Positions 235-64,000 of a stretch of DNA of 64,000 bases are shown here, piece after piece (position 1 is the first letter of the stretch; every line of letters begins with the position of its first letter). The DNA comes from Verrucomicrobiaceae bacterium (GTDB lineage Bacteria > Verrucomicrobiota > Verrucomicrobiia > Opitutales > Intestinicryptomonadaceae), in contig SUVO01000001.1 of the NCBI GenBank assembly GCA_015061955.1, forward strand, positions 2,233-66,232, read 5' to 3'. The notes below the pieces were generated by a model, which ran no database searches, was not told the origin of the DNA, and saw only the letters and a list, made by a program, of their open reading frames with translations. The position numbers and the translations under genes are program-made.

Positions 235-1650
235 ATGAAAAAAACATCTCAAAAATCAAAAAAATCACAGGCTACATGGGGCGGAAGATTTTCGCAGGCT
301 CCAAGCGAATTAATGTTGAAATTTGGCGAGTCGGTCTCGTTCGATAGTGCGTTGGCACAATTCGATATTCAAGGGTCGACAGCTCACGCAAAAATGCTTG
401 CCGATGTTGGTATTATTTCAAAAAAAGAATGTGCAGATATAGTTGCAGGACTCCAGAAAATTCTCAAGAAAATCGAAGCTGGTGAGTTTGAATGGAATGA
501 AGCTTTAGAAGATGTTCATATGAACATTGAACAAGCGTTAACTAAAGAAGTTCCAGCAGCAGCAAAACTCCATACAGCACGTAGTCGCAACGACCAAGTT
601 GCAACCGATATGCGTTTATTCTTTAAATCGGCAACTGTTGAAATTATTTTGAAGCTAAAAAATTTGCTATCAAATTTATTAGATTTAGCCGAAAAAAATA
701 TAAATGTGTATATTCCTGGTTATACTCATTTACAACGCGCACAACCAGTGAGTGTGGCTCATCATATTTTAGCATGGTGTGAAATGCTTTACAGAGATGT
801 TGAACGTTTCCAGTTTGTGTACGATGGTGCAAATGTATCGCCATTGGGTAGTGGTGCTATAGCTGGTACTACATTGCCAATTGATAGAGCAATATCGGCA
901 CGCTATATGGGATTTGTTGATGAAACCGACACTCCAGTTGTAACTGGAAATTCTATGGACGCTGTCGCCGATAGAGATGTGTTCTTCGAGTTCGCTTTTG
1001 CTTGCGCAACTATGGCAGTTCATTTCAGCAGAATTGCAGAAGATGTAATTATTTGGAACTCGTCGGAATTTGGTTTTGTTCGCTTGCCCGACACGTTTAC
1101 AACAGGGTCGTCGTTAATGCCTCAAAAGAAAAATCCTGATTCGTTCGAGCTTATGCGTGGTAAGTCGGCAAGAATGATTGGTAATTTAAATACTTTGATG
1201 TTGCTTGTGAAAGGTCTTCCTCTTACATATAACAGAGACTTGCAAGAAGATAAACCACCAGTGTTCGATTCGTTCAAGCAAGCATGTATGTGCTTAGATG
1301 TGTTGTCGGCATGCTCGGTAGATATTGAATTCAATAAACAGAAATGCGCCGAAGCTGTATCAGATCCATTGTTGTTGGCTACCGATTTGGCAGACTACTT
1401 TGTAATGCAAGGCGTACCTTTCCGCAATGCGCATCATATGGTTGGGGCAATAGTGGCATTGTCGGAGAAAACAGGTGTGCCAATTAATGAGCTTGCAGAT
1501 GAAGAAATTTTTGCAATTTGTCCGAATGCTAAGAAAGATTGGCGTAGTGTTTTCAATCTTGAGCGAGCATTTGAAATGCGCAAAGGCATAGGTATGCCCA
1601 ATTTGAAGTTGATTGCTAAGCAAATTGAAAATTTTAGAGATTTAATATAA
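235..1650 (+). CDS. argH: argininosuccinate lyase
   Basis: 471 aa with the N-terminal WGGRFS motif. Fumarate-lyase family signatures (GSSxMPQKKNP and [10 protein letters not shown]) are conserved throughout. Confidence 0.9.
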
Positions 1651-1672
1651 GGTTTTTAGTTATTTTATTGCA

Positions 1673-1710
1673 AAAGGTTCTTTCGAGAACCTTTTTTTAT
1701 TTTTTTTTTG
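1673..1710 (+). terminator. rho-independent terminator after argH
   Basis: Stem aaaggttct (1673-1681) pairs with agaaccttt (1686-1694), loop ttcg, followed by a T-run of more than 10 nt. Confidence 0.6.
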
Positions 1711-1766
1711 AAAATTTACATAAAAATATCTTGCATTTTTACATTAATTTGTCTTGGTATTTTACC

Positions 1767-2606
1767 ATGGAATTTTTTATATATAGTACTGCTTTAAAAA
1801 CAAATCTTTTGGCTTCAGCGCTAATAGATTATTTCAGGGATTCTAACTTAGCTGGTCAGGCAATCGTTGTTATTTTGTTTCTTATGAGTGTTGTTGCATG
1901 GGCTGTTATGTTTATGAAATACGCCGACTTATCTACAATAGAGGAGTTAAATATCAAAGCTGCAAAATGTGTAAAAAGTAGTGCAAGTTTGATAAATGCA
2001 GTAAGTAGTGTACGTTCAATTCCGAGTCCGTATTCTGTATTGCTAAAAGAAGCTTTAAATGCACGTTCAGACGCAGGTAATTGCAAGAATGTAAATATGA
2101 AAATTACAATGGTTGAAAATGCTCTTGCACGTGGATTGGCTCGTCAGATATCAAAATACGAAGAAAAAATGACTCTTTTAGGTACTGTTATTAGTGGTGC
2201 GCCATTCTTGGGACTTTTGGGTACTGCTTGGGGGGTTATGGATTGCTTCGGCTCAATGAGTGGTCAAACTTCGGTAACATTGCAACAGCTTGCTCCAGGG
2301 GTATCGGGTGCTTTGTTGACAACCGTTGCTGGCTTGGTTGTGGCTATTCCTTCTGTTTTCGGCTATAACTTTTTGAGCACGAAAATCAAAAAAATGATTG
2401 TTGATACAGAAAATTTTGCAGGATTGCTCTCCGACAAAGTTACAGTAGAAGCTATGTCGGAAGATTCTCCAGCGGTAGCAACGCGCGAACCTAAGCAAAC
2501 ACCATTGGTAGAGCGCGTTGTTAAAGGCTCAGCAGAAGCTGACAAGGTGATAGATTTTAGCCTTGATGATGATTCTATTGAGATGTCGAATTTTGATGAT
2601 GAATAA
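1767..2606 (+). CDS. exbB: MotA/TolQ/ExbB-family proton channel
   Basis: Three-TM topology with the typical MotA/TolQ/ExbB C-terminal helix pair (GLLGTAWGVMDCF...LLTTVAGLVVAIP). The start is set at the ATG at 1767 because the longer ORF beginning at 1668 runs through the argH terminator hairpin. Confidence 0.75.
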   Translation: MEFFIYSTALKTNLLASALIDYFRDSNLAGQAIVVILFLMSVVAWAVMFMKYADLSTIEELNIKAAKCVKSSASLINAVSSVRSIPSPYSVLLKEALNARSDAGNCKNVNMKITMVENALARGLARQISKYEEKMTLLGTVISGAPFLGLLGTAWGVMDCFGSMSGQTSVTLQQLAPGVSGALLTTVAGLVVAIPSVFGYNFLSTKIKKMIVDTENFAGLLSDKVTVEAMSEDSPAVATREPKQTPLVERVVKGSAEADKVIDFSLDDDSIEMSNFDDE

Positions 2607-2608
2607 TA

Positions 2609-3019
2609 ATGAAGCCACGTCATAGAGAATCGTTGTCGATTATGACAGAACTCAACGTTACGCCATTGATGGACTTGGCGTTTTCGTTGTTGATTATCTT
2701 CATGATTTCAACCCCACTATTAGAGCAAACTATACCTATAAATTTGCCTAAACAAGATGAACATACTGCAAGTAAACGCCCTGAAATAGATTTTCAGATA
2801 ATATCTATAAATAAAAGTGGTCAGATATATTGGGGTAAACAACCTGTTAGTATGGACGAACTAAATAATTTGTTGCACTCTATTGCCGGAAAAAAAGAGC
2901 CTCCAGCTATTAGTTTGCGTGCCGATTTTACTTTGCCATATCAAAAAATAGTCGACGTAATCGACGCTATAAAACGTAATAATTTAACAAAATTGCATCT
3001 AGATACGGAAGTAAAATAA
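2609..3019 (+). CDS. exbD: biopolymer transport protein ExbD/TolR
   Basis: About 136 aa with a single N-terminal TM helix (LNVTPLMDLAFSLLIIFM) and a periplasmic domain. It sits directly after exbB and before tonB; the true start may be the internal ATG at 2642. Confidence 0.75.
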   Translation: MKPRHRESLSIMTELNVTPLMDLAFSLLIIFMISTPLLEQTIPINLPKQDEHTASKRPEIDFQIISINKSGQIYWGKQPVSMDELNNLLHSIAGKKEPPAISLRADFTLPYQKIVDVIDAIKRNNLTKLHLDTEVK

Positions 3020-3828
3020 TGGCAAGTAATAATGTAAAGTTGGGTTATGTTTATTCGTTGGCTTTGCATATATTGATTGCAATTGCTATGTTTGCTTGGG
3101 CGTTGATTGATGTTCTGTTCCCCAAAGAAACAGTCGAAAATAAGTTGGTCTTTGAGATGGTTGAGCCATCAGAAAATCCTCCAGCACCACCTCCACCACC
3201 AACTGCTCCAGATACTCCACAAATAGAGGTTGAAAAGGTAAAAGAGATAGAGCCTATTGACATTCCAGATCCAACACCCCCTGAACCAGAGCCTACACCT
3301 CCAGAGCCTACACCAACTCCACCAAAAGACGACGCTCCGGTAGTTAAGCCTAAGCCAACACCTACACCTCCTAAAAAGGTCGATTTTAACGAGTGGAAAA
3401 AGAAAAATAAAAATAGAGCAACAAATCGTACTAATACTACTCCTCCAAAGAGAAAAGCAGTAAAGATTGGTCCGATAACATCAAAACATACTTCTATAAA
3501 TTCAATTTCCGATATAAAATCGCCAGCATCAAGTTCTATGTCGAATAGTGCAATGCGCGATGCTTTTGCTGAATATACAAATGCAATTTATATAATAGCA
3601 AAACGTAATTGGAAGCGACCCATGGTAAGTAGCGATATTTCTACTTTGTCGGCAAAGGTAACTTTCAGAGTAAGCAAAAATGGCATAATAAGTAATGTTC
3701 GCATTATTGAATCAAGTGGTGATAAAGATTTTGATAATTCGGTTATTCAAGTGTTCAAAATCATAACAATTCCACCACCACCCGATAATGCATCGCACAA
3801 CGTAAATATTACCTTTAGAGGTAGGTAA
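3019..3828 (+). CDS. tonB: energy transducer TonB
   Basis: N-terminal TM helix, a Pro-rich spacer (PPAPPPPPTAP...PEPEPTPPEPTPTPP) and a C-terminal TonB-like domain. Its start codon overlaps the exbD stop, indicating operonic coupling. Confidence 0.7.
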   Translation: MASNNVKLGYVYSLALHILIAIAMFAWALIDVLFPKETVENKLVFEMVEPSENPPAPPPPPTAPDTPQIEVEKVKEIEPIDIPDPTPPEPEPTPPEPTPTPPKDDAPVVKPKPTPTPPKKVDFNEWKKKNKNRATNRTNTTPPKRKAVKIGPITSKHTSINSISDIKSPASSSMSNSAMRDAFAEYTNAIYIIAKRNWKRPMVSSDISTLSAKVTFRVSKNGIISNVRIIESSGDKDFDNSVIQVFKIITIPPPPDNASHNVNITFRGR

Positions 3829-5296: not shown

Positions 5297-7048
5297 ATGA
5301 GATGCTTATTTTTATTATTGCTATTTCTGTTCTTAACACCTGCTTTGAAGTTATTTGGTGTAAGTGTAGATTTGCCAGAATTACCTAAAACTCCAGTTTC
5401 ACAGTTAGGTATGGGTCAGTTGAGCGAAGTATTGAGTACTAATTCAACTGAAGCGTGGAATACTATCGCCGAAGAAGCAAAACAAAAGGCGTTGTCTCTT
5501 GCACAATCTGGCGATATAAAACAAGCATCGAATTGGTTGTATACTTCGCTTGCAGCATCGGTTTGTGGTAGAGAAGGCGAAAAAATGCCAATCGAGTTAA
5601 AACGAATTTTTATTGAAAATATTCCAGTTTTTTTTGATTTCTACGAATCTCTTACAAAATACGATTCTTTAAGTAATGCTTGCGATGTTGCTACTCAATT
5701 ATTCATAAATCAACCTGCTCAAGCAAAAAAATATTTTAGAGCAACATTAGCGTTAGCTCTTATTTACGATGTATCGTTGCCACCAAATTGGCCACGTTGC
5801 AATGTTGTTGATGAGCCTACGCAAGTTTCAATGCCTCAAGAAATCTTCTTGTATCTGACTTTGCATGCCGACAAATTGGCATTCGACTTAAACAAACTTT
5901 CAATTGCCGAGTTAATTCATGTTATGGGGCTTTGTGGTCCGTTGCCAGAGCTTGAAAAAGTTTTTGTTGAAAATATTAAATTGCGCGAAATTGAAAATGT
6001 ACAAACATCAATAAAAACCGATAGTTCGCGTGCTCGTGGTGCGAAAAGTAAAGATTGGGACACCACTAAAAATGATTTTACTTTAGAAAATATAAAGCGA
6101 CTTGGTGCAACTCCATACGAAAAAACTTTCTATGCGTGGCGTTTAGCAAATGCCAATGGTATACCATGCTTGTTTTTTAACGATTCAGTTCGTAGTACAA
6201 AATTTGCATGGTTGGCATATATGAATGGTGCAGGTACTTGGAAGTTTGATGTTTTTAGAGATCCAGCATCGAAAATGCTTTTTGGCGCTCCTTTAAATCC
6301 ACAAACATGGAAACCTATTACAATGTTTGATTTGCACAGATTGGTAAAGCGCGAGCATATTACAGAAAAATCAGCACAAAGTATTGTGTTGTATCGTTTA
6401 GCTCAGTTGTTGTCTGATGCTGGTAAATATGCACTTGCTCGAGATTTTGCAAAAAAGGCTCTTGAGGAAAATCCACTAAATTGGCGTGCGTATAGTTTAT
6501 TGATTCCTTCTATGGCTCGTTGTGGGGCATCGTCTAAAGAATTAGATGAAGTTTATAGGCAGAGCTTTGAGGCATTTAAAGATTTTCCAGAGCAGTCCAC
6601 CAAAATGTTAAATTTGTATCGTGATAATTTGATAGCTCGCAAAAAAGCAAAAGAAGCCGATACTTTATTCCACAATGCAATGAAGCCAATTAACCGAGCA
6701 AATCCGGGTTTGGTGGCTGTTTTGTACGGCGATGTGTTAGAAGATATGTTGTCGAGAGCTAAGTCGGATTCTGAAGCATTAAGTGTTTTTAAGAACGTGA
6801 TGCGTTATTCATCAAAAGCTCCAGTTCAATTTTACGATTATGTGGCAAAACCATCTATCGAATACTTTTGGAAGAAAAACGATAGAAAATCGGCATTTGC
6901 GGCAATAAAAATAACATCATCGTTGGCAAGATCAAATAGCTATGTTGAAAATGCTTTAAACGATATAAAAATCAAGTTTGAAGATGAAATTAAACTTGAA
7001 AAACAAGGACCTACCGCAGAGAAAAAACCTAAACCATTTTACGAATAG
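5297..7048 (+). CDS. hypothetical secreted protein (583 aa)
   Basis: Long ORF with a hydrophobic, signal-like N-terminus. I recognise no family. Confidence 0.35.
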
Positions 7049-7059
7049 CGAGGAATGTT

Positions 7060-8253
7060 TTGAAAATTCTAAAGAATTTAAAAAGTAAATTAAAAAACTA
7101 TTCACAACGCTTCGCCCATTTTACAGCAGATGTAATTTATGATAGAGCCGATGGCTTTACTGCTATTATTTATGGAGGTTTGTTGTATTGTTTATCCTTT
7201 ATTTTTGAAGGTATAGCACGTTTGCGTTTTTATATGTACAACAAACGAATTTTGCGAGATGCTCCGTTGGGGTGTTTGGTTGTTGTTGTTGGTAATTTGA
7301 CTGTTGGTGGTACTGGTAAAACACCTATCGTTGAAAAATTTGCAAAGTCGCTTGCCGATAGAGGTAGAAAAGTTGCAATATTAAGCCGAGGCTACAAAAG
7401 TAAATCGGATAGTACTTTTAACAAAATTATAAGATGGTTTACGCATGGCGAATCTCCAAAACCTCGTGTTGTTTCTAACGGGGATAAAGTTTTGTTAGAC
7501 TCGTCTGTTGCAGGTGATGAACCATTTATGTTGGCTCGAAATCTCCCTGGGGTGATTGTGATTGTAGATAAAAATAGAGTCAGAGCAGGGCATTATGCTA
7601 TTACTGAATTTGGTGCCGATACCCTCATTTTAGACGATGGTTTTCAGTATCTGCCATTGCGTGGTCAACTTCAACTTTTGTTGGTCGATAAAACTAATCC
7701 TTTTGGGAACCGACGCTTGTTGCCTCGTGGAATTTTGCGTGAACCAGTGTCGCATTTAAAACGTGCTTCGTACATATTTTTAACAAAGAGCGATGGCGAA
7801 AAAGACTTCGAGCTTGAACAAACAATACGTCAGTACAACAAAACTGCCGAAATTATAGAATGCGCTCATAAGCTTAGATATTTAGTAGATTTTTCAACTA
7901 ATGAACGTTTCGAGCTTTCGTATCTTAAAGATAAAAAGATTGCCTGCTTTTCGGCTATTGCAGCTCCTGAAAGTTTTGAGAGATTTTTGCGTGAATTTGG
8001 TGCTAAGCTCGTTTATAAAAAACGTTTCCTCGACCACCACAGATTTACTGAAGACGAACTTAACGAAGTATTTTTAAATGCCAAAAATGCAGGTGCCGAA
8101 TTTATTGTTACTACTGAAAAAGACTCGGTTAGAATTGATTCTGCGTATAAGTCGGTAATTCCTTTCTACTATACCAAACTTGAAATTGAAATTCTAAGTG
8201 GGACAGAAGACTTCAATAAAGCTGTTGAACGCATTTGTTTCCCAGAGTTGTAA
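7060..8253 (+). CDS. lpxK: tetraacyldisaccharide 4'-kinase
   Basis: Walker A motif [13 protein letters not shown], an N-terminal membrane helix and the C-terminal DHH...TEKD region. It uses a TTG start at 7060 with an aggaa RBS. Confidence 0.8.
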
Positions 8254-8265
8254 AAACTTCGTAAA

Positions 8266-9117
8266 ATGAAAGAGAAAGATTTTGCAGCAATGTTGTCGGT
8301 TGTGGCGGCTGGAGGGCTTACGCTTGCCAAGATTGTTGTAGGGGTTGCTACGGGGAGTTTAGGGATTATTTCTGAAGCGTTGCATTCGGCATTAGATTTA
8401 TTGGCTGCAGGTATGACTTGGTTTGCCGTAAAATTGTCCGACAAACCTGCCGATAAAGAACACAATTTTGGACACGGGAAAATTGAAAATCTTTCAGCAT
8501 TGTTCGAATCGGTTTTATTGTTGGCTACTTGTGTATGGGTTATATACGAAGCCATTTCAAGATTGTATTACAAAGATACTGCGTTTTCGTTAAGTGCGTG
8601 GGCTTTTGCTGTTGTTGTGGTATCAATAATTGTTGATTTTTTCAGATCTCGTCATCTGATGAATACTGCAAAAAAATACAATAGCCAAGCCTTAGAAGCC
8701 GACGCTTTGCATTTTTCAATCGATATGTTAAGCTCGTTTGTTGTGTTGATTGGGTTGGTGGCATCGTATTTAGGCTACGATTTTGCCGATAGCATTGCGG
8801 CATTGGGCGTTTCGGTTATAGTTGCGTGGGTGTCGTTGAAACTTTCATATAGGGCAATAAATGCTTTGTTAGATACAGCACCTGTCGGAATTGTCGAACA
8901 AATTGATGGTGTGTTGTCTTCGATATCAGACATAAAAAAATGGCACGATTTGCGTGTGCGTAGCAATGGTTGTGGGTATGAAATCGATATAAATATCCAT
9001 GTAAAACCCAATCTAACTTTGGTTGAAGCTCATGAAATATCGGAACGATTGGAAAATGAAATTCGTACATTGATAGGTGTTGCAACAATAAATGTTCATG
9101 TTGAACCCGATGATTAG
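8266..9117 (+). CDS. cation diffusion facilitator family transporter
   Basis: CDF signature (SEALHSALDLLAAGMTWFAVKLSDKPADKEHNFGHGKIENLSAL), six TM segments and a C-terminal cytoplasmic domain. Confidence 0.8.
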   Translation: MKEKDFAAMLSVVAAGGLTLAKIVVGVATGSLGIISEALHSALDLLAAGMTWFAVKLSDKPADKEHNFGHGKIENLSALFESVLLLATCVWVIYEAISRLYYKDTAFSLSAWAFAVVVVSIIVDFFRSRHLMNTAKKYNSQALEADALHFSIDMLSSFVVLIGLVASYLGYDFADSIAALGVSVIVAWVSLKLSYRAINALLDTAPVGIVEQIDGVLSSISDIKKWHDLRVRSNGCGYEIDINIHVKPNLTLVEAHEISERLENEIRTLIGVATINVHVEPDD

Positions 9118-9174
9118 TGCTTTTTTTTATTGTCAATAATGTTAAAAATCGGTGTATGATGTTATAAATATTGT

Positions 9175-9203
9175 TTGACCTTTTTTGTGTTAGTTGGTAA
9201 AAT
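9175..9203 (+). promoter_or_regulatory. sigma70-like promoter upstream of the glycoside hydrolase triplet
   Basis: TTGACC (9175-9180), a 17-nt spacer, then TAAAAT (9198-9203). It lies about 55 nt upstream of the aaggag RBS and the ATG at 9259. Confidence 0.35.
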
Positions 9204-9258
9204 CAATTTGTTGAGCTTTAAATTTTATTTATAGAAAACAAATAATCAAAGGAGTTGT

Positions 9259-10371
9259 ATGAAAATAAAATCATTTATAATTGGGGCGTTGTCGTTTGTA
9301 GTTGCCTCAACATCGTTTGCACGCGATGTTTGGACAGCCGAAGAAGCAAATGCGTGGTTTGCAAAACAACCATATAGAGCAGGTGTGAACTATATTCCAG
9401 CATATGCAATTAACGCAATAGAAATTTGGCAGAAAGAAACATTCGATATCAAAGTTATCGAAAAGGAGTTTGCCTTAATGCAGTCGATAGGTTTCAACGC
9501 AATTCGTGTGTTCCTTAATGATTTAGTTGTAAATGACGACCCCAAAGGTTTCCTTGAACGCTTCGAGCTTTTCCTCAAGACAGCCGACAAATACGATATT
9601 GGTGTTATGGTTGTATTCTTCACAAATGGAGGTAGAGACGATGCAAAGCTTGGCAAACAACCAGAGCCAAATGGCACTCACAATTCAGGTTGGAAAAAGC
9701 AACCCTCTTATAAAATCTTGGGCGATAGATCGAAATGGGGACACTTAGAAAAATATGTAAGAACAGTTGTTGGTGCTCACGCCAAAGACCCACGCATTAT
9801 TTGTTGGGATATCTTTAATGAACCTGGGAATATTCGTAGTGAACACATCGTTGGTGGTGGAGCAGGGCTTACAAAAGAACGCATAGAGTATTTGCAAGAT
9901 TGCGTTGTAGAAGTCATAAAATTAAGTTCGCAGTGGGCTCGTTCGTACGATCCAATTCAGCCAATTACATATGGTATGTGGGCTCGCTCTCCAGAGTTCA
10001 AAAAGAAGTTCGATAAAGTTCAGTTTGAAAATAGCGACGTTGTTTCGTATCACTCGTACGGAAATCTTCGTGAACAAATACTTCGTCATAAAGAGCTTAA
10101 AAAATTCAATAAGCCGGTATTCTGTAAAGAATGGATGGGCAGAATTTTGGGTAGTACATATAATCCAATATTGCAGTATCATAAGCAAAATAAAATTTGG
10201 TCGTTTGCATTTGGTTTAGTTGCAGGTAAAATGGAAACATGGCGTCCTTGGCCACATCATGATACTCCAGAAACAAAAGGTATATGGTTCCATGATTTGT
10301 ACAAGGCAGACCACACTCCATATTGCCCAGAAGAAATCGAATACATTAAGAGAGTTTTAAAAGATAAATAA
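9259..10371 (+). CDS. secreted clan GH-A (GH5-like) glycoside hydrolase, paralog 1 of 3
   Basis: Signal peptide followed by TIM-barrel motifs: NAIRVFLND, the WDIFNEPGN (NEP) acid/base and a CKEWMG putative nucleophile. About 65-70% identical to the next two ORFs. Confidence 0.55.
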   Translation: MKIKSFIIGALSFVVASTSFARDVWTAEEANAWFAKQPYRAGVNYIPAYAINAIEIWQKETFDIKVIEKEFALMQSIGFNAIRVFLNDLVVNDDPKGFLERFELFLKTADKYDIGVMVVFFTNGGRDDAKLGKQPEPNGTHNSGWKKQPSYKILGDRSKWGHLEKYVRTVVGAHAKDPRIICWDIFNEPGNIRSEHIVGGGAGLTKERIEYLQDCVVEVIKLSSQWARSYDPIQPITYGMWARSPEFKKKFDKVQFENSDVVSYHSYGNLREQILRHKELKKFNKPVFCKEWMGRILGSTYNPILQYHKQNKIWSFAFGLVAGKMETWRPWPHHDTPETKGIWFHDLYKADHTPYCPEEIEYIKRVLKDK

Positions 10372-52768: not shown

Positions 52769-53015
52769 AAGAATTTTTGTTTTATAGTTTATCGAAATGA
52801 ATTAAAAAACTTTAAAAACTCAAACAAAGGTTATTTTATATGTTGTTTTTTTGTGGGTTTTGTTTGAAACGATATGTTTTGCATGTACTTATGAAAGAAA
52901 AAAAATTATTTAACTAAAAAAAAATGTTCGATATTTTTTTTATTTGTGTAAGACTTATTGTGAGAAAATTTTTATCTTTCGTTTTAGAAAGAACATTTAC
53001 AAACAAAAAGTAGAT

Positions 53016-55283
53016 ATGATTACATCAATAATAACAACAATGTCTGAATCGGCTATGATGTCGGCAACAGTTAATCCAGCGTTTTGGTTAGTTCCAATCG
53101 CTTCAGTAGTAGCGTTAGTTTTTGCGCTATTATTTTATAAAGGAATGAAGTCGGAAGAAGAAGGAACCGACATCATGAAAAAAATTGCCTTACACGTACG
53201 TCAAGGTGCATTGGCATATTTAAAACAACAATACAAAATAGTTGCTTGTGTATTTGTTGCTTTATTTCTCTTCTTTGCTTTTTTGGCATATGGCTTAGGT
53301 GTGCAGAACGAATGGGTACCGTTTGCTTTTATAACTGGTGGCTTTTTCTCTGGTTTGGCTGGGTTCTTTGGTATGAAAACTGCAACCTATGCATCGAATC
53401 GTGCTGCATATGCCGCTAAGAATTCCCTCGACCACGGATTGCGTGTTGCGTTTCGTTCTGGTGCAGTTATGGGGCTTGTCGTGGTGGGCTTAGCTTTGCT
53501 CGACATTTCTATTTGGTTTGTAATTCTAAACTATTTTATTGAAGATGCAAATCCAGCACATAAGATGATTATCATAACCACTACAATGCTCACTTTTGGT
53601 ATGGGGGCTAGTTTGCAAGCTTTGTTTGCTCGTGTTGGTGGTGGTATTTTCACAAAGGCTGCCGACGTAGGTGCAGACCTTGTTGGAAAAGTTGAAGCTG
53701 GAATCCCAGAAGACGATCCTCGCAATCCTGCTACTATTGCCGACAACGTAGGCGACAACGTAGGCGACGTTGCTGGTATGGGCGCTGACTTGTACGAATC
53801 GTACTGTGGCTCTATCTTAGCAACAGCTGCATTAGGTGCTGCTGCTTATATGACTAACGTTGATGTACAGATGAAAGCTGTGTTAGCGCCTATGATTATT
53901 GGTGCTATTGGTGTTGTGCTTTCTATTGTTGGTATTTACTTTGTACGCGTAAAACCTGGTGCCGACAGCAAACAACTTTTAGGTGCTTTAGGTAAGGGTG
54001 TAAATGCTAGTTCTATTTTAATTGCCATTGTTTCTGCTTTGATTTTATGGCAACTCGGTATGCCAAACTGGCTTGGCAACTGGGCTTCTATTATTACAGG
54101 TTTGATAACTGGTATTTTCATTGGCAAAATTACCGAGTACTATACTTCAGAAGCTTACTCGCCAACTCGTGGTATTGCCGAACAAGCAAAAACTGGTCCA
54201 GCAACTGTAATTATTGCTGGTATGGGTACTGGTATGATTTCTACATTCTATCCAGTTATGGCTATTGTTGTTGGTACTGCATTAGCATTTATTTTCTCAG
54301 CAGGTGGCGATTTCTCAAATATGTCGGAAGGTCTTTATGGCATAGGTATTGCTGCTGTTGGTATGTTATCAACTTTAGGCATTACTTTGGCTACGGATGC
54401 TTACGGCCCAATTGCTGACAATGCTGGTGGGAATGCAGAAATGTCGGGCTTGGGAAAAGAAGTTCGTCGTCGCACCGATATGCTCGATTCTCTCGGTAAT
54501 ACTACTGCCGCAACTGGCAAGGGTTTTGCTATTGGGTCGGCAGCATTGACTGCTCTTGCTCTATTGGCTTCGTATGTTGAAGAGCTTCGCATTGGTTTAG
54601 TTCGCATAAAGGGCAATGCAAACATTTCTGAATACGCTTCTTCTATCTTAGAAAAATTTGAGAAAGTTGGTGGTGTTCAAAACGCTTCACTACTCGATTT
54701 TATGAACATTTACGGCGTAAACTTGATGAATCCAAAAGTTCTTTTGGGTATGTTCATTGGTTCGATGATGTCGTTCCTTTTCTGTGGTCTTACAATGAAT
54801 GCTGTCGGACGCGCTGCCAACCAAATGGTAAACGAAGTTCGTCGTCAATTCCGTGAAAATCTCGGCATTATGCAAGGTACTTCTGATCCAGACTATGCTC
54901 GTTGTGTAGAAATTTCTACCAAGGCTGCTCAAAAAGAAATGCTTTTCCCTTCGTTATTAGCTGTTGCAACTCCTGTTATTACTGGATTAGTTTTTGGCGT
55001 AACTGGTGTTTTAGGACTCCTCGGTGGTGCTTTAGCTTCGGGGTTTGTTTTAGCTATATTTATGGCAAACAGTGGTGGTGCTTGGGACAACGCCAAGAAA
55101 TACATTGAACAAGACAATTTTGGAGGGAAAGGCTCTGAAGCCCACAAAGCTGCCGTTATTGGCGACACTGTTGGCGATCCATTCAAAGACACATCTGGTC
55201 CATCTTTGAACATTCTCATAAAGCTTATGAGCATGGTAGCCATTGTTATGGCAGGTGTAACGGTATCATTCTCTCTCCTTTAA
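53016..55283 (+). CDS. hppA: membrane-bound H+/Na+-translocating pyrophosphatase
   Basis: Signature motifs [20 protein letters not shown] and [17 protein letters not shown], and about 16 TM helices. The start is set at MITSII (53016). Confidence 0.9.
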
Positions 55284-55810
55284 AAAAACGTGTGTGGACG
55301 CACCACGAGGGCAATATTTTTTATTATAATGATGAAAGGCAATTCTTCGGAATTGCCTTTTTTTGTATTAGCTTGCCCTCGTGGTGCTTGTAGCTAAAAA
55401 CGCACTTTTGCATCGACTCACGACCACAGGTCGCTCACGCTCGCAAAAGCACGTTTTTAGCAGACACCACACACGTTTTTTGTTTCTGTTTCTTACGTTG
55501 ATTCTAATCTGAGGGCAATATTTTTTATTATAATGATGAAAGGCAATTCTTAGAATTGCCTTTTTTTGTATTTAAATTCGCAAAGTGGTGCTTGTAGCTA
55601 AAAACGCACTTTTGTATCGACTCACGACCAAAGGTCGCTCACGCTCGCAAAAGCAACGTTCTAAGCACATGTCTCTCACGTTTTTTATTTCCGTTTCTAA
55701 GTTGGTTCTAATTTGATATAGTTAGACAAAGAAGCTATTGCAAAGCAATCTTCGCCATTTCCCAACATATAATAAAAAGTTTGCCCTCGTGGTGCTTGTA
55801 GCTAAAAATG
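55283..55810. repeat. intergenic mosaic of repeat modules (D, C, D, C, F, D-tail) at a convergent junction
   Basis: Module D at 55300-55400 and 55511-55606. Module C at 55402-55508 and 55607-55715. Module F at 55716-55775. D-tail at 55779-55808. A 14-bp inverted repeat aaaaacgtgtgtgg / ccacacacgttttt at 55285-55298 and 55470-55483 brackets the first D+C unit. Confidence 0.7.
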
Positions 55811-55818
55811 AACAATTT

Positions 55819-58212
55819 TTAAAATCTAAGAATTGTATAAGAATAAGGTTTTGCCTTGAAGGTTTTTGTACTATCGAACTGCCAAATATATTCAACTGGG
55901 CTGATATGTTCGGGAGCATAAGGTGTGTTTTCATCTTTGCAATTTCCCAAAATTGTAGTAGCTTTTGCTTTTGATGTACTACCAGCGAAATTTGATATAT
56001 TTATCGGCACATCTATTTCTTCCATTGTTGGATTTACAATATAAACAGCTAATGTTTTACCTTGTTCATCGGTTGCTGCCGATACAATTAGTTTATTATG
56101 TTCCGATGTTTTTACTACGCGTGGAAGTAGGTTTTGCGAATCCATTTTCTGAACATGGAACGATGGTTGGCCAAATGCTTTATTTTGGTCGAAGAACACA
56201 ATGCCTTGGTGCCAACCATTGAAGTTTTGTTTGTAGGCTTCGAGTGCGTTAGCTGGGCAAGTAGCAATTACAAAGTCCATATTCTTGCGTACTGTTTGCA
56301 AAATTCCAGCGTGCGATATAGCTCGTTGATGATTACAAATTGAGCCATTTTCCTCGAGGATAATCACACGCATTTTATGGTCGGGTTTGAATTTCTTGAA
56401 AGAGTCGCGCCAATGTTTAATAGTGCGTTCCAAATTTTTTCCGCTATTGATATTATTTACCCATGGGTGCATATCCCAAAAATCTGCAATGCCATCGAGT
56501 TCATTTAGAACGTATTTCATTATTTCAGGGATTTTATCGTTCCACCAGCACGCATGGATAATTTTTATAGACGGATCTTTTTTCTTTATGACTTCGGCTA
56601 ACAACTTTATGCGTTTTACAGTATATTCGTAATTTTCTTTATATGGGTCGATTATACATTCTTCGTTGCCGAGTTCTATATATTTTATTTTGTATGGTTC
56701 GGGGTATCCGTCTTTAGCACGTTTTGCTCCCCATTTTGTAGATGTATCGCCATTGAAATAGTCTATCATATCGGCAACATCTTCGGGAGTTTCATCTACA
56801 TTTATTGCAAATACGGGTTCTGCTCCCATAGCTTTGCAGAACTTCGTAAACTCAATAACACCAAAGCCCAGCGTTGCATAACGATACCAGTGCCCCCTGA
56901 ATGTTGGGCGTTTATCTTTGTCGCCATACATCGACTTAAATTTGTAATTTGGATTATTTACCATTGTACCTCCATAACGGAGTATACCCAAGTTTTGTTC
57001 AGCCATTTTATCAGCTATATCGGGACGAACATTTGCCATATTACGCCACAATTTTGAGCGATGCAAATATGCCATATCGAGTGCTATTTTACCTTTTCCT
57101 TGTAGTATTATAGAAAATTCATTTACATCTTGAGCGTATTTTTTATTTATTTTGAATGGATATTTTTTTATTTCGCCATTTGAATTTTTGTCTACTTTTA
57201 GCTCAACTTTATTACCTGTAATTTCTACAAAAACTTTTGCGTTTTCATCGAGGTTTGTACGCATTGTTATAAAGCCTTCAAACTCTTCATTGTCTTTTAC
57301 AGGAAAACCATTCCCATTTTTGAATGTTCCTAAATTTGTTATTTGAGCTACCGACGAATCATCTAAACCTTCTACAATTTGTAGCGTACGATTATTTTCG
57401 TGGGCAATTTGAAAATTTGCATTGTTGCTGTTTTCCGACCTAATCCAACGTCCACTAATTTGAGCTTTACTTGAATATCCAGCTAATGGACTATAAAAGT
57501 TTTTTCCGTTGCCAGTAAATTTAAAATTTCTAATACCACTGATTTCCCCTGGGTCTGTGTTATAACCAATGCCGAAGTAGCCCTTGCGAAGTGGTTTTAA
57601 ATCGGGGTAGTGTGCTACAACTTTGCCATTGAGCTTTACTTCGAGACCATTTTTATGCGATATTTTTGCACCAAAAGTATTCCACTTTTCAAATTCATAA
57701 TTTACGGGTGTCTTGCGTAAATATTTGCGATTAGCTCCAAAAATTATTATTTCACGCTGACGAATATCTACATAATAAGTATCCATTTCTCCCAGATTTT
57801 TATTATCTGGATATGTTCCATTGAGCATAAGAATTGGTTTATGTGGTTTGGGCGACATCTCTACGGAAATCTCGCCTTCTTCGGCTTGTTCTTTATACAA
57901 TAGCACTGCAATTTCTGAGCTTGGATCGCCTTCTGTGTGTGTTGGCAGTGTACGCCACGAGCCATGAGCAACTTCAAATTCAGGTGGAATTGCACCTTCT
58001 GGTGGTTCTTCAAAGCGTTCGCCGAAAATCATTTGACCATAAAGACCACCATAGACTTCATGATTGAGATCTTCCAAACATGCACCATGTAGGAAGTTTG
58101 TTGCTGTTTGAATTTGCTTAGAACAATCTACATCGATAGATTGCGTTTGTGCATTTAAACAAATTGTTGCTCCTATAATAGAAGCTATTGTAATTATTTT
58201 TTTGTATTTCAT
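55819..58212 (-). CDS. large secreted glycoside hydrolase with an N-terminal beta-sandwich plus TIM-barrel (GH51/GH39-like)
   Basis: Signal peptide and 797 aa, with an ELGNEE-type acid/base block (KYIELGNEECI) in the C-terminal half. Sits beside a GH43 gene. The family is uncertain. Confidence 0.4.
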   Translation of the reverse strand: MKYKKIITIASIIGATICLNAQTQSIDVDCSKQIQTATNFLHGACLEDLNHEVYGGLYGQMIFGERFEEPPEGAIPPEFEVAHGSWRTLPTHTEGDPSSEIAVLLYKEQAEEGEISVEMSPKPHKPILMLNGTYPDNKNLGEMDTYYVDIRQREIIIFGANRKYLRKTPVNYEFEKWNTFGAKISHKNGLEVKLNGKVVAHYPDLKPLRKGYFGIGYNTDPGEISGIRNFKFTGNGKNFYSPLAGYSSKAQISGRWIRSENSNNANFQIAHENNRTLQIVEGLDDSSVAQITNLGTFKNGNGFPVKDNEEFEGFITMRTNLDENAKVFVEITGNKVELKVDKNSNGEIKKYPFKINKKYAQDVNEFSIILQGKGKIALDMAYLHRSKLWRNMANVRPDIADKMAEQNLGILRYGGTMVNNPNYKFKSMYGDKDKRPTFRGHWYRYATLGFGVIEFTKFCKAMGAEPVFAINVDETPEDVADMIDYFNGDTSTKWGAKRAKDGYPEPYKIKYIELGNEECIIDPYKENYEYTVKRIKLLAEVIKKKDPSIKIIHACWWNDKIPEIMKYVLNELDGIADFWDMHPWVNNINSGKNLERTIKHWRDSFKKFKPDHKMRVIILEENGSICNHQRAISHAGILQTVRKNMDFVIATCPANALEAYKQNFNGWHQGIVFFDQNKAFGQPSFHVQKMDSQNLLPRVVKTSEHNKLIVSAATDEQGKTLAVYIVNPTMEEIDVPINISNFAGSTSKAKATTILGNCKDENTPYAPEHISPVEYIWQFDSTKTFKAKPYSYTILRF

Positions 58213-59325: not shown

Positions 59326-60789
59326 TTGATAATGCGTTGTATGTTTAATGAAAAAGTAAAATTACCACCAGTGTGGATATCGCTTATTCCGTTGGTACTA
59401 TTAGTTGTGCTGATTGGTTGTGTTGTGTATGTGTTTGGAAGCAATTCGCTTGCTGGAGCAAGTCAGATTTCATTGTTGATTGCATCAGCAATGTCAGTGG
59501 GGTTAGGTATGTTTTTTAAGCACATAACGTGGGCTGATTTTGAGAAGTCTGTAGCCGATAAAATTGGTGGAGTTTCGCAAGCTATTATTATTCTACTAAT
59601 GATAGGTGCTTTAGGTGGTGCATGGATGGTAAGTGGTATTGTGCCAACTATGATTTACTATGGTTTGCAAATTCTAACACCAGAATGTTTCTTGGCTATA
59701 ACTTGTTTTGTGTGTGCTATTGTATCGGTTGTGACAGGAAGCTCGTGGACAACAGTTGCAACTATTGGTGTTGCTTTAATTGGCATTGGTAGAGCATTAG
59801 GAATAAGTGATGGTTGGATAGCTGGTGCTATTATTTCTGGTGCGTATTTTGGCGATAAAATATCGCCTTTGAGCGATACTACTGTGTTGGCATCATCAAC
59901 TGTGGGAACTCCGTTATTCACACACATTAGATATATGCTCTATACAACTATACCCACATTTATGATTGCGTTGGCTATTTATGTTACGTACGGTCTTTGT
60001 CATGATGTATCGGCTTCAACATCTGTTGATTCTTATCTTAATGCTATATCGAGTACATTTTACATATCTCCTGTATTGCTTATTGTTCCCATTATTACAG
60101 GTATTATGATTGCAAAGAAAATGCCTTCTATTATGGTTTTATTTTTGGCAACAATGATAGCTGTGTTTGTTGCAATAATTGCTCAACCACATTTGTTAAG
60201 TGAAATTTCAGGTTGTAAAGATGGTGGTATTATATCGCATTTTAAAGGTGCAATGATTATAGTTTACGGAAGTACTGGTATCGATACTGGGTTGTCTGAA
60301 CTGAACAATTTAGTTTCTACACGTGGAATGGCTGGTATGATGAGCACTATTTGGCTGATATTGTGCGCTATGGTTTTTGGTGGTGCAATGACTGTTACTG
60401 GAATGCTTGAAAGTATAATGCGTTTGTTTTTGCGATTTGTGAAAACTACAGTTAGTGCAGTTGCATCGACTGTATGTGTTGGTAGCTTTTTGAATACAAT
60501 TTGTGGTGATCAATATTTATCTATTATTTTAACTTCGAGTATGTTTAAAAATGTTTACGAGCAAGAAGGCTACGAAGCACGTCTTCTGAGCCGAACGGTA
60601 GAAGATTCAGTAACCGTTACATCGGTGTTAGTTCCATGGAATACTTGTGGTATGACACAAGCAACAGTGTTGGGAGTATCAGTTTTGGCTTTTGCACCTT
60701 ATGCGTTCTTTAATTTGTTAAGTCCACTTATGTCTATTATCGTGGCTGCAAGTGGATACAAGATTTATAGAAATGTATTAAAAAAATAA
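59326..60789 (+). CDS. Na+/H+ antiporter NhaC family
   Basis: About 12 TM helices with NhaC-like organisation and length. Confidence 0.6.
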   Translation: MIMRCMFNEKVKLPPVWISLIPLVLLVVLIGCVVYVFGSNSLAGASQISLLIASAMSVGLGMFFKHITWADFEKSVADKIGGVSQAIIILLMIGALGGAWMVSGIVPTMIYYGLQILTPECFLAITCFVCAIVSVVTGSSWTTVATIGVALIGIGRALGISDGWIAGAIISGAYFGDKISPLSDTTVLASSTVGTPLFTHIRYMLYTTIPTFMIALAIYVTYGLCHDVSASTSVDSYLNAISSTFYISPVLLIVPIITGIMIAKKMPSIMVLFLATMIAVFVAIIAQPHLLSEISGCKDGGIISHFKGAMIIVYGSTGIDTGLSELNNLVSTRGMAGMMSTIWLILCAMVFGGAMTVTGMLESIMRLFLRFVKTTVSAVASTVCVGSFLNTICGDQYLSIILTSSMFKNVYEQEGYEARLLSRTVEDSVTVTSVLVPWNTCGMTQATVLGVSVLAFAPYAFFNLLSPLMSIIVAASGYKIYRNVLKK

Positions 60790-60843: not shown

Positions 60844-61317
60844 ATGAAACTAAAAGATAGAATAAAGGAGTTTTATAAAAAGATTGTGGGTGAAGATGCT
60901 TCGCCTGAATTTATTGCTCGTGGTTGGGCAATTGGAATGTTCTATGGTTGTTTAATTCCATTTGGTTTACAACTTATATTGTCGATTCCTACTGCGTTTA
61001 TTTTAAAGGGAAGCAAAGTTGGTGCTACGATTGGTACATTTATTACAAATCACTTTACTGTTTTTGTAATATATCCGTTGCAGTGTTATGTAGGAAGCAT
61101 AATTTTACGAAATGGATTATCCTACGATATAATAAAAGATGCAATGCTTAAGGTTATAAACGAACAAACTTACGATAGTTTGGTTTCGTGTGGAGCCGAT
61201 TTAGTTTACTCGTTTTTTATGGGTGGGTTTTTACTTACTGCAATTATGACTCCTATTACATATATTGGGGTTTTATATATGGTAAAGAGCTATCGTAGTA
61301 AGAAAGAACAACAATAG
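60844..61317 (+). CDS. DUF2062-like small membrane protein
   Basis: Start at MKLKDRIKEF; three or four TM helices. Confidence 0.35.
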   Translation: MKLKDRIKEFYKKIVGEDASPEFIARGWAIGMFYGCLIPFGLQLILSIPTAFILKGSKVGATIGTFITNHFTVFVIYPLQCYVGSIILRNGLSYDIIKDAMLKVINEQTYDSLVSCGADLVYSFFMGGFLLTAIMTPITYIGVLYMVKSYRSKKEQQ

Positions 61318-61372
61318 TTTACACAAAAAAATGCTGAATATTATTCAGCATTTTTTTTATGTGTTAATATTT

Positions 61373-63085
61373 TTAAGCTTGTTGATTATTTGTATTTTCA
61401 ACATTTCTACGAACACGAGGGATTTTATCGTAGAACTTGCCAGCTCTGTCGATAATATTGAACAGGTTTTTAGCAACCTTGCGAATCGATTCTAACAATT
61501 CGAGGTACAAAATACCAATTTCAGGGCGACATGTACCCGAATTTACACGCGAAACGTGTTCGGCTTCAACATTGTTTAAAGTTTCGACAATAGAAGCTCT
61601 TATTTTTAGAGCATTTTTAGATGCCTCTTGCGACTTTGTTTCTAATAGAACTATAGCACATTGTGCAAGCGATTCTAACTTTTGATGTAAATCGTTATAT
61701 TCTGTTTCTGCATTTGGACTGAAAGTATACTTATTTTTCTTTATACGATTCATAATATCGCGTATACCCTCAGCTAAGTCGCCAATGCGTTCGGCATCGT
61801 TAGTGCAGTGTAGGAGCATTGGAATTTGGTCGGCTTCTTCCGATGTTAAATCGCACTGCATCAGTTTTGCAAGATATTGGGTGATGTCTTTTTGACGTGT
61901 ATCTACATCGTTTTCACTTGTATCAAGACTCTTGAGGAATTCTTGATTTTTTTCATCGTTTTTATTATATATGTTGAGCGTGCAATCTGCCATTTTCCAC
62001 GATTTTTTCAACATTTTACGCAACGCAGACGCAGCTTGTGCCAATGCAATAGGTGGTGTCGACAACAAGCTTGGTTCAAGACGCTGATAACGAACGCGTT
62101 CGTTACCAATTGGGATAACTTTTTCGCATATTTTTGCAAATGTAGGCACAAATGCTATTAGTACTATTGTTGTACATACGTTGAATAATGTGTGGGCATT
62201 TGCAATCTGGCGAGGCAAATCGCCACCCTTTGAAAACCATTCAACTGCTTTAAAAAATATTGGTTCTCCATCTATCGTGAACCAGAATGTGCAAACTATA
62301 ATAAGAACACCCATTAAATTAAAAAGAGTGTGTGCCAAAGCTGTTTGTTTTGCAATTCTGTTTGCTGGTATTGCCGCAAGCTGAGCAGTTATTGTTGTGC
62401 CGATGTTTGAACCTAATACTAAAGCAACTGCTGTATAAATATCTACCAAACCACTTGCACCTAAGGCAACCACAATACCCGAACAAGCCGATGAACTTTG
62501 AATTACAAACGTTGCTATCATACCTATTGCAATAGCTCCGAAAAGCTCAATAGGTGGAATAACACCATTTACTGGAGCACACTTGAATGTTTGAAAAGCT
62601 TGTTTGAAAGCTGGATCTTCTGCCAGAGTTTTAAGTTCGTTGCTCATCATTTCCATACCCAAGAACAAGAAGCCCAAACCTATGATAGTTGCACTCCAGT
62701 TGCTTATAGTACGCTTTGGAATAAAGCTCAAGACCAACCCCAATATAATAGATGGCATAATAATCCAACTAATATCGAATGCTACTAATTGAGCAGTTAT
62801 TGTAGTACCTATATTAGCACCAAAAATAATGCTGATTGCCTGAACTAAACTGAGCAAACCAGCATTAACAAAACCAATAACCATAACTGTACTTGCACTC
62901 GAAGATTGTATAACTGCCGTAACAGTTGCCCCCGATACAACCCCGACAAATCTGTTTGCCGAGAATAAGCGGAGAATTGTACGCATACGTTCTCCCGCTA
63001 CATGATGAAGCCCATCGCTCATAAGCTTCATTCCGAATATGAATATGGCTAAACCACCAAATACTTGTAATAATAGTTCTGTCAT
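61373..63085 (-). CDS. Na+/phosphate cotransporter (NptA/YjbB family) with a C-terminal PhoU-like domain
   Basis: An N-terminal Na_Pi_cotrans repeat pair (GANIGTT x2) and a C-terminal PhoU-like helical domain. Confidence 0.75.
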   Translation of the reverse strand: MTELLLQVFGGLAIFIFGMKLMSDGLHHVAGERMRTILRLFSANRFVGVVSGATVTAVIQSSSASTVMVIGFVNAGLLSLVQAISIIFGANIGTTITAQLVAFDISWIIMPSIILGLVLSFIPKRTISNWSATIIGLGFLFLGMEMMSNELKTLAEDPAFKQAFQTFKCAPVNGVIPPIELFGAIAIGMIATFVIQSSSACSGIVVALGASGLVDIYTAVALVLGSNIGTTITAQLAAIPANRIAKQTALAHTLFNLMGVLIIVCTFWFTIDGEPIFFKAVEWFSKGGDLPRQIANAHTLFNVCTTIVLIAFVPTFAKICEKVIPIGNERVRYQRLEPSLLSTPPIALAQAASALRKMLKKSWKMADCTLNIYNKNDEKNQEFLKSLDTSENDVDTRQKDITQYLAKLMQCDLTSEEADQIPMLLHCTNDAERIGDLAEGIRDIMNRIKKNKYTFSPNAETEYNDLHQKLESLAQCAIVLLETKSQEASKNALKIRASIVETLNNVEAEHVSRVNSGTCRPEIGILYLELLESIRKVAKNLFNIIDRAGKFYDKIPRVRRNVENTNNQQA

Positions 63086-63169
63086 AAAATAATCAGTTCA
63101 GTAGTGTGGCAATTTTTTTATTCTTGTAAAGATTTTTCGTAAAATTATGTTTTGAGGTTGTCGGGGAAT

Positions 63170-63200
63170 GAAAAAAGACTAAGATTTGTTCTTAGTCTTT
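63170..63200 (-). terminator. terminator for the small chimeric ORF (minus strand)
   Basis: agactaag, loop atttgtt, cttagtct, followed by TTTTTT on the minus strand. Confidence 0.5.
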
Positions 63201-63237
63201 AAGTTGTTTATTAGTAATGTTTTATCTTGTTGTTTTG

Positions 63238-63519
63238 TCAATTTTCAACATTTCTACGAACACGAGGGATTTTATCGTAGAACTTGCCAGCTCTGTCGAT
63301 AATATTGAACAGGTTTTTAGCAACCTTGCGAATCGATTCTAACAATTCGAGGTACAAAATACCAATTTCAGGGCGACATGTACCCGAATTTACACGCGAA
63401 ACGTGTTCGGCTTCAACATTGTTTATTTTTTCAGTTGCTATAAAAATATAGGCAACAATCAGAATTGCCGCAGAAAATGTAACGGCATTCATTTTTACAT
63501 ATTCTAAAAAAAAATCCAT
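63238..63519 (-). CDS. chimeric small ORF: new TM N-terminus fused to a duplicated C-terminal 61 aa of the Na/Pi cotransporter
   Basis: nt 63241-63425 are 100% identical to 61394-61578. The encoded NNVEAEHVSRV...RVRRNVEN is identical to the cotransporter C-terminus. The N-terminal 32 aa (MDFFLEYVKMNAVTFSAAILIVAYIFIATEKI) are unique and hydrophobic. Confidence 0.4.
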   Translation of the reverse strand: MDFFLEYVKMNAVTFSAAILIVAYIFIATEKINNVEAEHVSRVNSGTCRPEIGILYLELLESIRKVAKNLFNIIDRAGKFYDKIPRVRRNVEN

Positions 63520-64000
63520 GATTGATTATTCTTTTTCAGGATACATTGCACCATAATCTAAGTTTACAATGTTCCTATTTATTTATTTTTTTGATACGCA
63601 CAACAATGGAACAATAATTCCTACTTTATGCGTAAACGACTGAAACGAATCATTGATTTTACATAAAAACAGGCATACACACCTGTGTAGTCAATGCTTC
63701 TTATAATTATATTAGAATATCAATCAGATTATAAGTACTGTCGAGTTTTCGCAGTAGCTACTTTTACATACATAGGTATCATCTTTATAAATTTTTTCTG
63801 ATACCAGTTCGCAACATTTAGTATTAGTTGCAACAAATAATTCGTAAAATTTAACAATAGCTACAACAGCTAAAAGTGCAAATGCTCCAGATTTAGAAAA
63901 GCACATCGACATATCAAACAAAAATTTTCTTCTGTTTTGTCTATCCACTTTATAACTTCTATCTATGGAAGAATACATAACCGATGGTGGATGTGCATAA

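Follow-up and report, generated by a model that had tools for sequence, protein, structure and literature searches.

A 93-codon open reading frame beside a Na/Pi cotransporter gene is very probably the scar of one deletion in the genome of a gut member of the Verrucomicrobiota

The window analysed here, a stretch of 64,000 nt from the MAG "Verrucomicrobiaceae bacterium", carries a 93-codon open reading frame (ORF93) that is very probably the scar left in a gut Verrucomicrobiota (Opitutia-like) genome by one deletion of ~4.7 kb. This event would have fused the 5' end of a permease gene, termed X, to the 3' end of NaPi-1, a lost tandem paralogue of the Na/Pi cotransporter gene NaPi-2 that follows ORF93. 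At NCBI the two products are MBE6412969.1 (ORF93) and MBE6412968.1 (NaPi). The features of the region are as follows, with L numbers denoting the contigs used for comparison.

63724..64000, minus strand: 131-aa hypothetical gene, 3' part, which runs past the window end; syntenic with a 145-aa gene of L092
63669..63686, minus strand: terminator-like hairpin after the upstream 131-aa gene
63238..63519, minus strand: ORF93, chimeric in-frame fusion joining the 5' end of permease X to the 3' end of NaPi-1; NCBI hypothetical protein MBE6412969.1 (E7035_00260)
63426..63519, minus strand: X-derived part, ATG plus ~31 codons, covering the N-terminus, with the first TM helix, of a CitMHS/ArsB-type permease; DNA collinear with L092 up to here
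63419..63425, minus strand: probable deletion junction, 7-nt microhomology TAAACAA, common to X (ATAAACAAAGTTG) and NaPi (TTAAACAATGTTG) in the same frame
63241..63425, minus strand: repeat copy 1, probable remnant of the lost NaPi-1 3' end, codons ~504-564; 185/185 against NaPi-2
63215..63240, minus strand: diverged NaPi-1 tail, homologous to the NaPi-2 tail only with gaps
63174..63200, minus strand: intrinsic terminator inherited from the former NaPi-1, a hairpin with orthologues behind the L007 remnant and behind L011 NaPi-1
63086..63173, minus strand: NaPi-2 upstream region, CTTTACA…AAAAAAAYTGCCACACTACT…ATG, kept in four genomes
61373..63085, minus strand: NaPi-2, the full-length Na/Pi cotransporter that survives, 570 aa, its C-terminal domain PhoU-like
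61394..61578, minus strand: repeat copy 2, inside NaPi-2, codons 504-564
61325..61357, either strand: bidirectional terminator hairpin separating NaPi-2 from the DUF2062 gene that runs towards it; no sequence relation to the ORF93 hairpin

The repeat and the chimeric reading frame

As claimed in the preliminary description of this DNA, positions 63241-63425 and 61394-61578 form a perfect direct repeat, matching at 185/185 nt. The exact match stops at both edges and is present in two copies in total within the window; a gapped alignment adds ~23 nt of homology on the 3' side, to 210 nt at 96.7% identity. On the coding (minus) strand the repeat fragment lies upstream of the 570-aa transporter gene and in the same orientation. 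ORF93 (63238..63519, minus strand, 93 aa) keeps the proposed frame for the transporter's last 61 aa, its residues 33-93 being residues 504-564 of NaPi-2. Its residues 11-29 are strongly hydrophobic (mean Kyte-Doolittle 2.0), and the chimera that had been described, a TM N-terminus joined to 61 in-repeat residues of the transporter C-terminal domain, was confirmed. So was a separate downstream hairpin terminator, found at 63200..63174 (minus strand) with an 11-bp stem and a T-run (-11.9 kcal/mol, z = -4.9).

Pfam analysis of the 570-aa NaPi-2 returned the two Na_Pi_cotrans repeats (PF02690, E = 2.4e-61, 2 stretches) and a single PhoU match (PF01895) at residues 355-441, with 28.3 bits against a cut-off of 23.5. 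A PDB sequence search with the C-terminal domain gave no significant match. The promoter and 5' UTR of NaPi-2 presumably lie within 63086..63173. Because a terminator-like hairpin stands at 63669..63686, ORF93 would need the former X promoter, which would lie in 63520-63668. A sigma-70 promoter scan yielded a site count not above that of shuffled sequence, and an Rfam scan of 61000-64000 gave sub-threshold matches on the terminator only and no known RNA element.

The 131-aa gene upstream of ORF93 (63724-64000; L001 9401-9796) is hypervariable, with 54% amino acid identity to its L092 orthologue as against 95-97% for its neighbours. Pfam gives no match, and the start is called at varying positions, for products of 123-157 aa. 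Elsewhere in the window, a ~204-nt tandem repeat (55307-55808, 2 copies, 87% identity) occupies the intergenic space between 52944..55283 (plus strand) and 55819..58212 (minus strand), and each unit holds a GC-rich hairpin with a T-run (GGCAATTCTTCAGAATTGCC).

The two parent genes and the junction between them

The 3' part of ORF93 had been read as a duplication of the resident gene's 3' end. Comparison with relatives points instead to the residue of a separate upstream paralogue. On L011, a contig of a close relative whose NaPi-2 is 97% identical to that of the window at the amino acid level, a second Na/Pi-PhoU gene (NaPi-1) lies directly upstream of the NaPi-2 orthologue. It is at least 484 aa long, a lower bound as the gene is cut by the contig end, and shares 88% amino acid and 85% nucleotide identity with NaPi-2 of the same contig. 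The hairpin after ORF93 and the CTTTACA…AAAAAAAYTGCCACACTACT…ATG block align with the sequence after L011 NaPi-1 and after two further NaPi-1 remnants, in L009 (130 aa) and L007 (89 aa); the terminators after full-length NaPi genes are unrelated to this hairpin. The downstream flank of the remnant is thus orthologous to NaPi-1 flanks, which identifies the window copy as the NaPi-1 3' end and not as a new copy of NaPi-2. The TGA stop of ORF93 (63240-63238) falls at a position where L011 NaPi-1 reads TCA.

Candidatus Spyradenecus (L015, L016) has tandem NaPi pairs too, as do less closely related MAGs of the PVC group and of Hydrogenedentota (L034, L070, L071). Candidatus Spyradosoma, a further close match, belongs to the Verrucomicrobiota, class Opitutia. 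A scan of the genome collection returned no conspecific genome, the best match reaching 76% amino acid identity. In this closest species-level genome, SUVQ01000002.1 (L031) and SUVQ01000006.1 (L032) both end inside a NaPi gene at aa 442; the genome probably holds two NaPi copies sharing a repeat that broke the assembly.

The 32 N-terminal residues had been called hydrophobic and novel. The former holds; the latter does not, as they correspond to the start codon and first helix of permease X. A tblastn search placed residues 1-32 at the beginning of a gene of 448 aa that immediately precedes NaPi in an Opitutales MAG (L037), and this gene encodes a CitMHS/ArsB-type permease (Pfam CitMHS, PF03600, E = 6.7e-86). 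Residues 1-35 are 80-83% identical to the intact 442-aa permeases P0032, P0045 and P0040 and share their start Met. P0045 is encoded on L092, which, like L011, is a separate contig of one and the same sample. Over 8.1 kb, L092 and L001, a contig of the window type, are collinear with 90% identity, the common order being sigma-70, SDF, glpD-like, glpK, MIP and small gene, and at the orthologous position L092 has an intact X. The two contigs cease to be homologous at L001 10109 (L092 8109), 15 nt beyond the start of the repeat; past this point L092 carries the remainder of X, then a small oadG-like ORF and an oadB-like gene. On L091 an oadB-like gene is followed by the start of a NaPi gene. Both parents therefore exist in relatives, on separate contigs: X is intact in L092, and NaPi-1 has orthologous downstream flanks in L011. 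A metagenome scan with L011 NaPi-1 returned L091 as its sole hit and did not recover the full ancestral array. The L091 gene (1236-1856), downstream of the oadB-like gene, is 93.5% identical to the NaPi-2 5' end of the window over its first 557 nt, and its reading frame ends after ~188 aa, running into unrelated sequence; it may be another decayed NaPi-1.

At the breakpoint, the sequences are GAAAAAATAAACAAAGTTGTAG for X (L092), GAAACTTTAAACAATGTTGAAG for NaPi and GAAAAAATAAACAATGTTGAAG for the window. X and NaPi have in common the microhomology TAAACAA (63425..63419, minus strand), and the junction match reaches 11/12 nt once the GTTG after TAAACAA is counted. The base after the microhomology, T at 63418, has the NaPi state. 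TAAACAA stands in the same codon phase in both genes (I-N-K-V in X, L-N-N-V in NaPi; fusion junction in ORF93, IATEKINNVEAEH), so that an in-frame fusion results without any need for selection, and one ~4.7-kb deletion accounts for the in-frame chimera.

We propose that the ancestral order was glpK, glpF(MIP), small gene, permease X, oadG-like, oadB-like, NaPi-1, NaPi-2 and DUF2062. Illegitimate recombination or slippage at TAAACAA would have joined X codon ~33 to NaPi-1 codon ~504, and the product would be the in-frame 93-codon ORF with the start region of X and the stop region and terminator of NaPi-1. The ~4.7 kb is an estimate summed from the L092, L091 and NaPi-1 pieces, the ancestral array being present on no single contig, and the link from oadB to NaPi-1 rests on L091, a ~90% relative with a truncated NaPi.

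Sister genomes have lost NaPi-1 as well, in other ways. L007 retains 295 nt of it (5983-6277) directly after MIP, with the small gene, X and oadGB gone; L009 retains ~370 nt (120-488) after unrelated sequence; and the window retains 185-210 nt after the head of X. The left flank of the L009 remnant (nt 1-119) had no match among the sequences compared. Since their left ends differ, the three truncations are separate events. ORF93 itself turned up elsewhere in identical copies only, and the sister genomes carry other truncations in place of the chimera. The right breakpoints fall at codons ~473 (L007), ~446 (L009) and ~504 (window), all within the last 22% of the gene. This clustering is a mild oddity, mildly non-random with n=3 and mildly unexpected under purely neutral deletion. 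The 3' piece would have been kept since longer deletions would remove the terminator and promoter before NaPi-2; this need probably explains the retention, possibly with stepwise erosion as an added cause. In L007 the interval from NaPi-2 to DUF2062 (8240-9617) also holds three small genes, of 137, 119 and 145 aa and with no Pfam match on record, and the Na_H_antiporter gene found at 59326..60789 in the window is missing.

Product and possible roles of ORF93

ORF93 may well be transcribed and translated from the X signals, and is most likely a non-functional deletion scar. Pfam analysis of ORF93 gave no match to PF02690, none to PF01895 at E ≤ 0.1 and none to PF03600, its homology to CitMHS/ArsB being limited to aa 1-35. 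From the ~230-residue C-terminal cytoplasmic region of the transporter it retains 504-564, and nothing of the PhoU match at 355-441. A single-sequence AlphaFold model predicts a long helix (2-45), a loop, a second helix (51-83) and a short helix (85-92), with pLDDT 75 and pTM 0.40. The proximal ~75 nt upstream of ORF93 resemble those of the intact X gene in L094. Promoter decay upstream of ORF93, considered on account of 50% identity to L092, was dropped, as the similarity to L094 indicates a different allele.

A remnant that is not inert is very improbable. It could act as a tethered PhoU-tail fragment tuning or interfering with NaPi-2 or phosphate signalling, or have a role in cis before NaPi-2. 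If the former were true, the promoter that once served the permease would drive the fragment, and through gene conversion ORF93 would stay matched to its partner; the latter, if true, would explain why three independent deletions each spared the last 185-370 nt of NaPi-1.

The more specific proposal that ORF93 is an expressed and selected small membrane protein, a TM-tethered PhoU-tail fragment that modulates NaPi-2 or phosphate signalling and is kept matched by conversion, is highly improbable. It would be in keeping with an intact, in-frame ORF that has an X-like upstream region and a separate terminator, and with the TM helix and helical hairpin suggested by the AlphaFold prediction. PhoU domains of NptA-type transporters are moreover regulatory in S. 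aureus (PMC13170248). However, the in-frame state follows from the in-frame microhomology, and the residues kept lie outside the Pfam PhoU match. The chimera is restricted to one clonal lineage, all carrier contigs being 100% identical, and the remnant ORFs of L007 (89 aa) and L009 (130 aa) lack the X-derived TM anchor and use other starts. Because the chimeric architecture is conserved in no sister lineage, a dominant-negative or regulatory microprotein is disfavoured; the idea is not absurd, given the S. aureus case, but none of the present findings supports it. The dN/dS of the 32 X-derived codons against L092 is raised to 0.63, on a tiny sample, compared with 0.04-0.07 for SDF, glpK and MIP, and the stop is premature.

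Assembly support, identity of the copies and known counterparts

The preliminary description had allowed for an assembly artefact, and independent assemblies speak against this. Four independent metagenome contigs (L001-L004) encode precisely this 93-aa product, each time in the order MIP, 131-aa gene, ORF93 and NaPi, and two more (L005, L006) run from within ORF93 across the whole NaPi gene into DUF2062. All six are 100% identical to the window, and the junction-spanning contigs stem from at least six samples.

That the MAG contains a collapsed or mis-joined repeat, and that no cell has a 93-aa ORF, is accordingly exceedingly unlikely, even though contig ends tend to fall within the repeat or close to it (L001, L005, L006) and two other contigs depart from the window arrangement. 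L008 (6001-6300) passes from the head of ORF93 through the repeat to the NaPi tail, skipping the 1662-bp NaPi-2 loop and giving a 99-aa product (P0004); L010 is a circular-looking loop contig of 1987 nt (1847 plus a 140-nt terminal overlap) that codes for a 564-aa NaPi with the tail of ORF93. These may be assembler artefacts or may reflect real recombination between the 185-bp repeats that deletes or excises NaPi-2. Against a mis-joined repeat stand the path from the head of X through repeat and terminator to NaPi-2 in L001-L004 and the window, and the path from repeat through terminator, NaPi-2 and second repeat to DUF2062 in L005 and L006, in contigs that differ in sample and assembler. Since the unique loop is bordered by the repeat on both sides, a linear genome requires two copies. 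L007 has the same architecture with copies that differ at 15/185 positions, so that they are not confusable there.

The zero divergence of the two copies had been taken as a sign of a very recent event. Neither the flanks nor the distances within the 185-nt core agree with this. The core distances are as follows.

Window remnant versus window NaPi-2: 0 differences
L011 NaPi-1 versus L011 NaPi-2: 0 differences
L007 remnant versus L007 NaPi-2: 15 differences
Window versus L011, either copy: 14 differences
Window or L011 versus L007: 27-30 differences

The differences between genomes are mostly synonymous. Sequences cluster by genome in the core and by locus in the flanks, a hallmark of concerted evolution through gene conversion, which is known from prokaryotes (PMC6053082). 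Homogenisation shows even in L011, whose two copies are both long, NaPi-1 being cut by the contig end alone: there the identity between NaPi-1 and NaPi-2 is a mosaic of 97-100% over the last ~300 nt, 93-98% over the first aligned ~100 nt and 67-90% in the middle, suggesting repeated short conversion tracts at the gene ends. In contig coordinates, the two genes compared (3-1457 and 1589-3301) have near-identical ends and a divergent middle. The left edge of the perfect repeat in the window coincides with the deletion junction, and its right edge with the point at which the NaPi-1 and NaPi-2 tails differ in all genomes. What follows the remnant, namely the hairpin and the NaPi-2 upstream region, has orthologues across four genomes, at a divergence between genomes of 8-16%, so the locus is old.

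We therefore regard as scarcely credible a recent partial duplication of the resident Na/Pi gene 3' end, inserted upstream and fused to new sequence: the copies are identical at 185/185 positions with sharp boundaries, yet the outer flanks have their orthologues beside NaPi-1 or its remnants (L011, L009, L007) rather than beside NaPi-2, the X/NaPi-1 deletion junction forms the left boundary, and in L011 two copies of at least 484 aa are likewise perfectly identical at the 3' end.

Under the deletion model, the ends of the tandem paralogues would evolve in concert through gene conversion, putatively of the RecA type, between direct repeats, and the remnant would be identical to the NaPi-2 3' end for this reason. 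Gene conversion is thus the probable cause of the match to the surviving gene; either it continued past the deletion, or the deletion post-dates the last conversion. In L007 the remnant has drifted from NaPi-2, and conversion appears to have come to an end there.

Overall, ORF93 is a new example of known processes, namely microhomology-mediated deletion, pseudogene remnants and gene conversion, and no new biology is needed to account for it. A perfect repeat with a neat chimeric ORF in a MAG can mimic a new gene or an artefact, and here the comparison with relatives reveals the remnant of an old paralogue whose identity concerted evolution has maintained. The 185-bp repeat makes assembly loops that assemblers resolve differently, from which the 99-aa and 564-aa phantom products arise. 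The comparison also documents the recurrent independent loss of one tandem Na/Pi-PhoU transporter, together with permease and oadGB-like genes, in gut Verrucomicrobiota.

With bacterial gene remnants left by deletion at microhomologies, ORF93 shares intact parents in relatives, a breakpoint in a short microhomology, a restricted lineage, remnant lengths that vary between lineages and the loss of functional domains. It differs in being unusually pristine, with zero differences from a live paralogue, and in happening to make up a tidy ORF, in frame and complete with start region and terminator. As in other concerted bacterial paralogues (PMC6053082; for rRNA operons, PMC8022953), likeness is greater within than between genomes, identity occurs in mosaic tracts and flanks group by locus; here, however, one partner is truncated, presumably dead and only ~185 nt long, and the homogenised tracts are limited to the gene ends. 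NaPi-2 resembles NptA/YjbB-type Na/Pi cotransporters with a PhoU-like domain in its two Na_Pi_cotrans repeats and PhoU, and the repeat lies in its C-terminal cytoplasmic domain, whereas ORF93 lacks the transporter domain, keeps only the last 61 tail residues and is not a member of the family. Finally, residues 1-35 of ORF93 share homology with the N-terminal end, including the first TM helix, of CitMHS/ArsB/NhaD-superfamily anion permeases (AILIVAYIFIATEKI), although > 90% of the permease is absent from ORF93, in line with the lack of a Pfam match.
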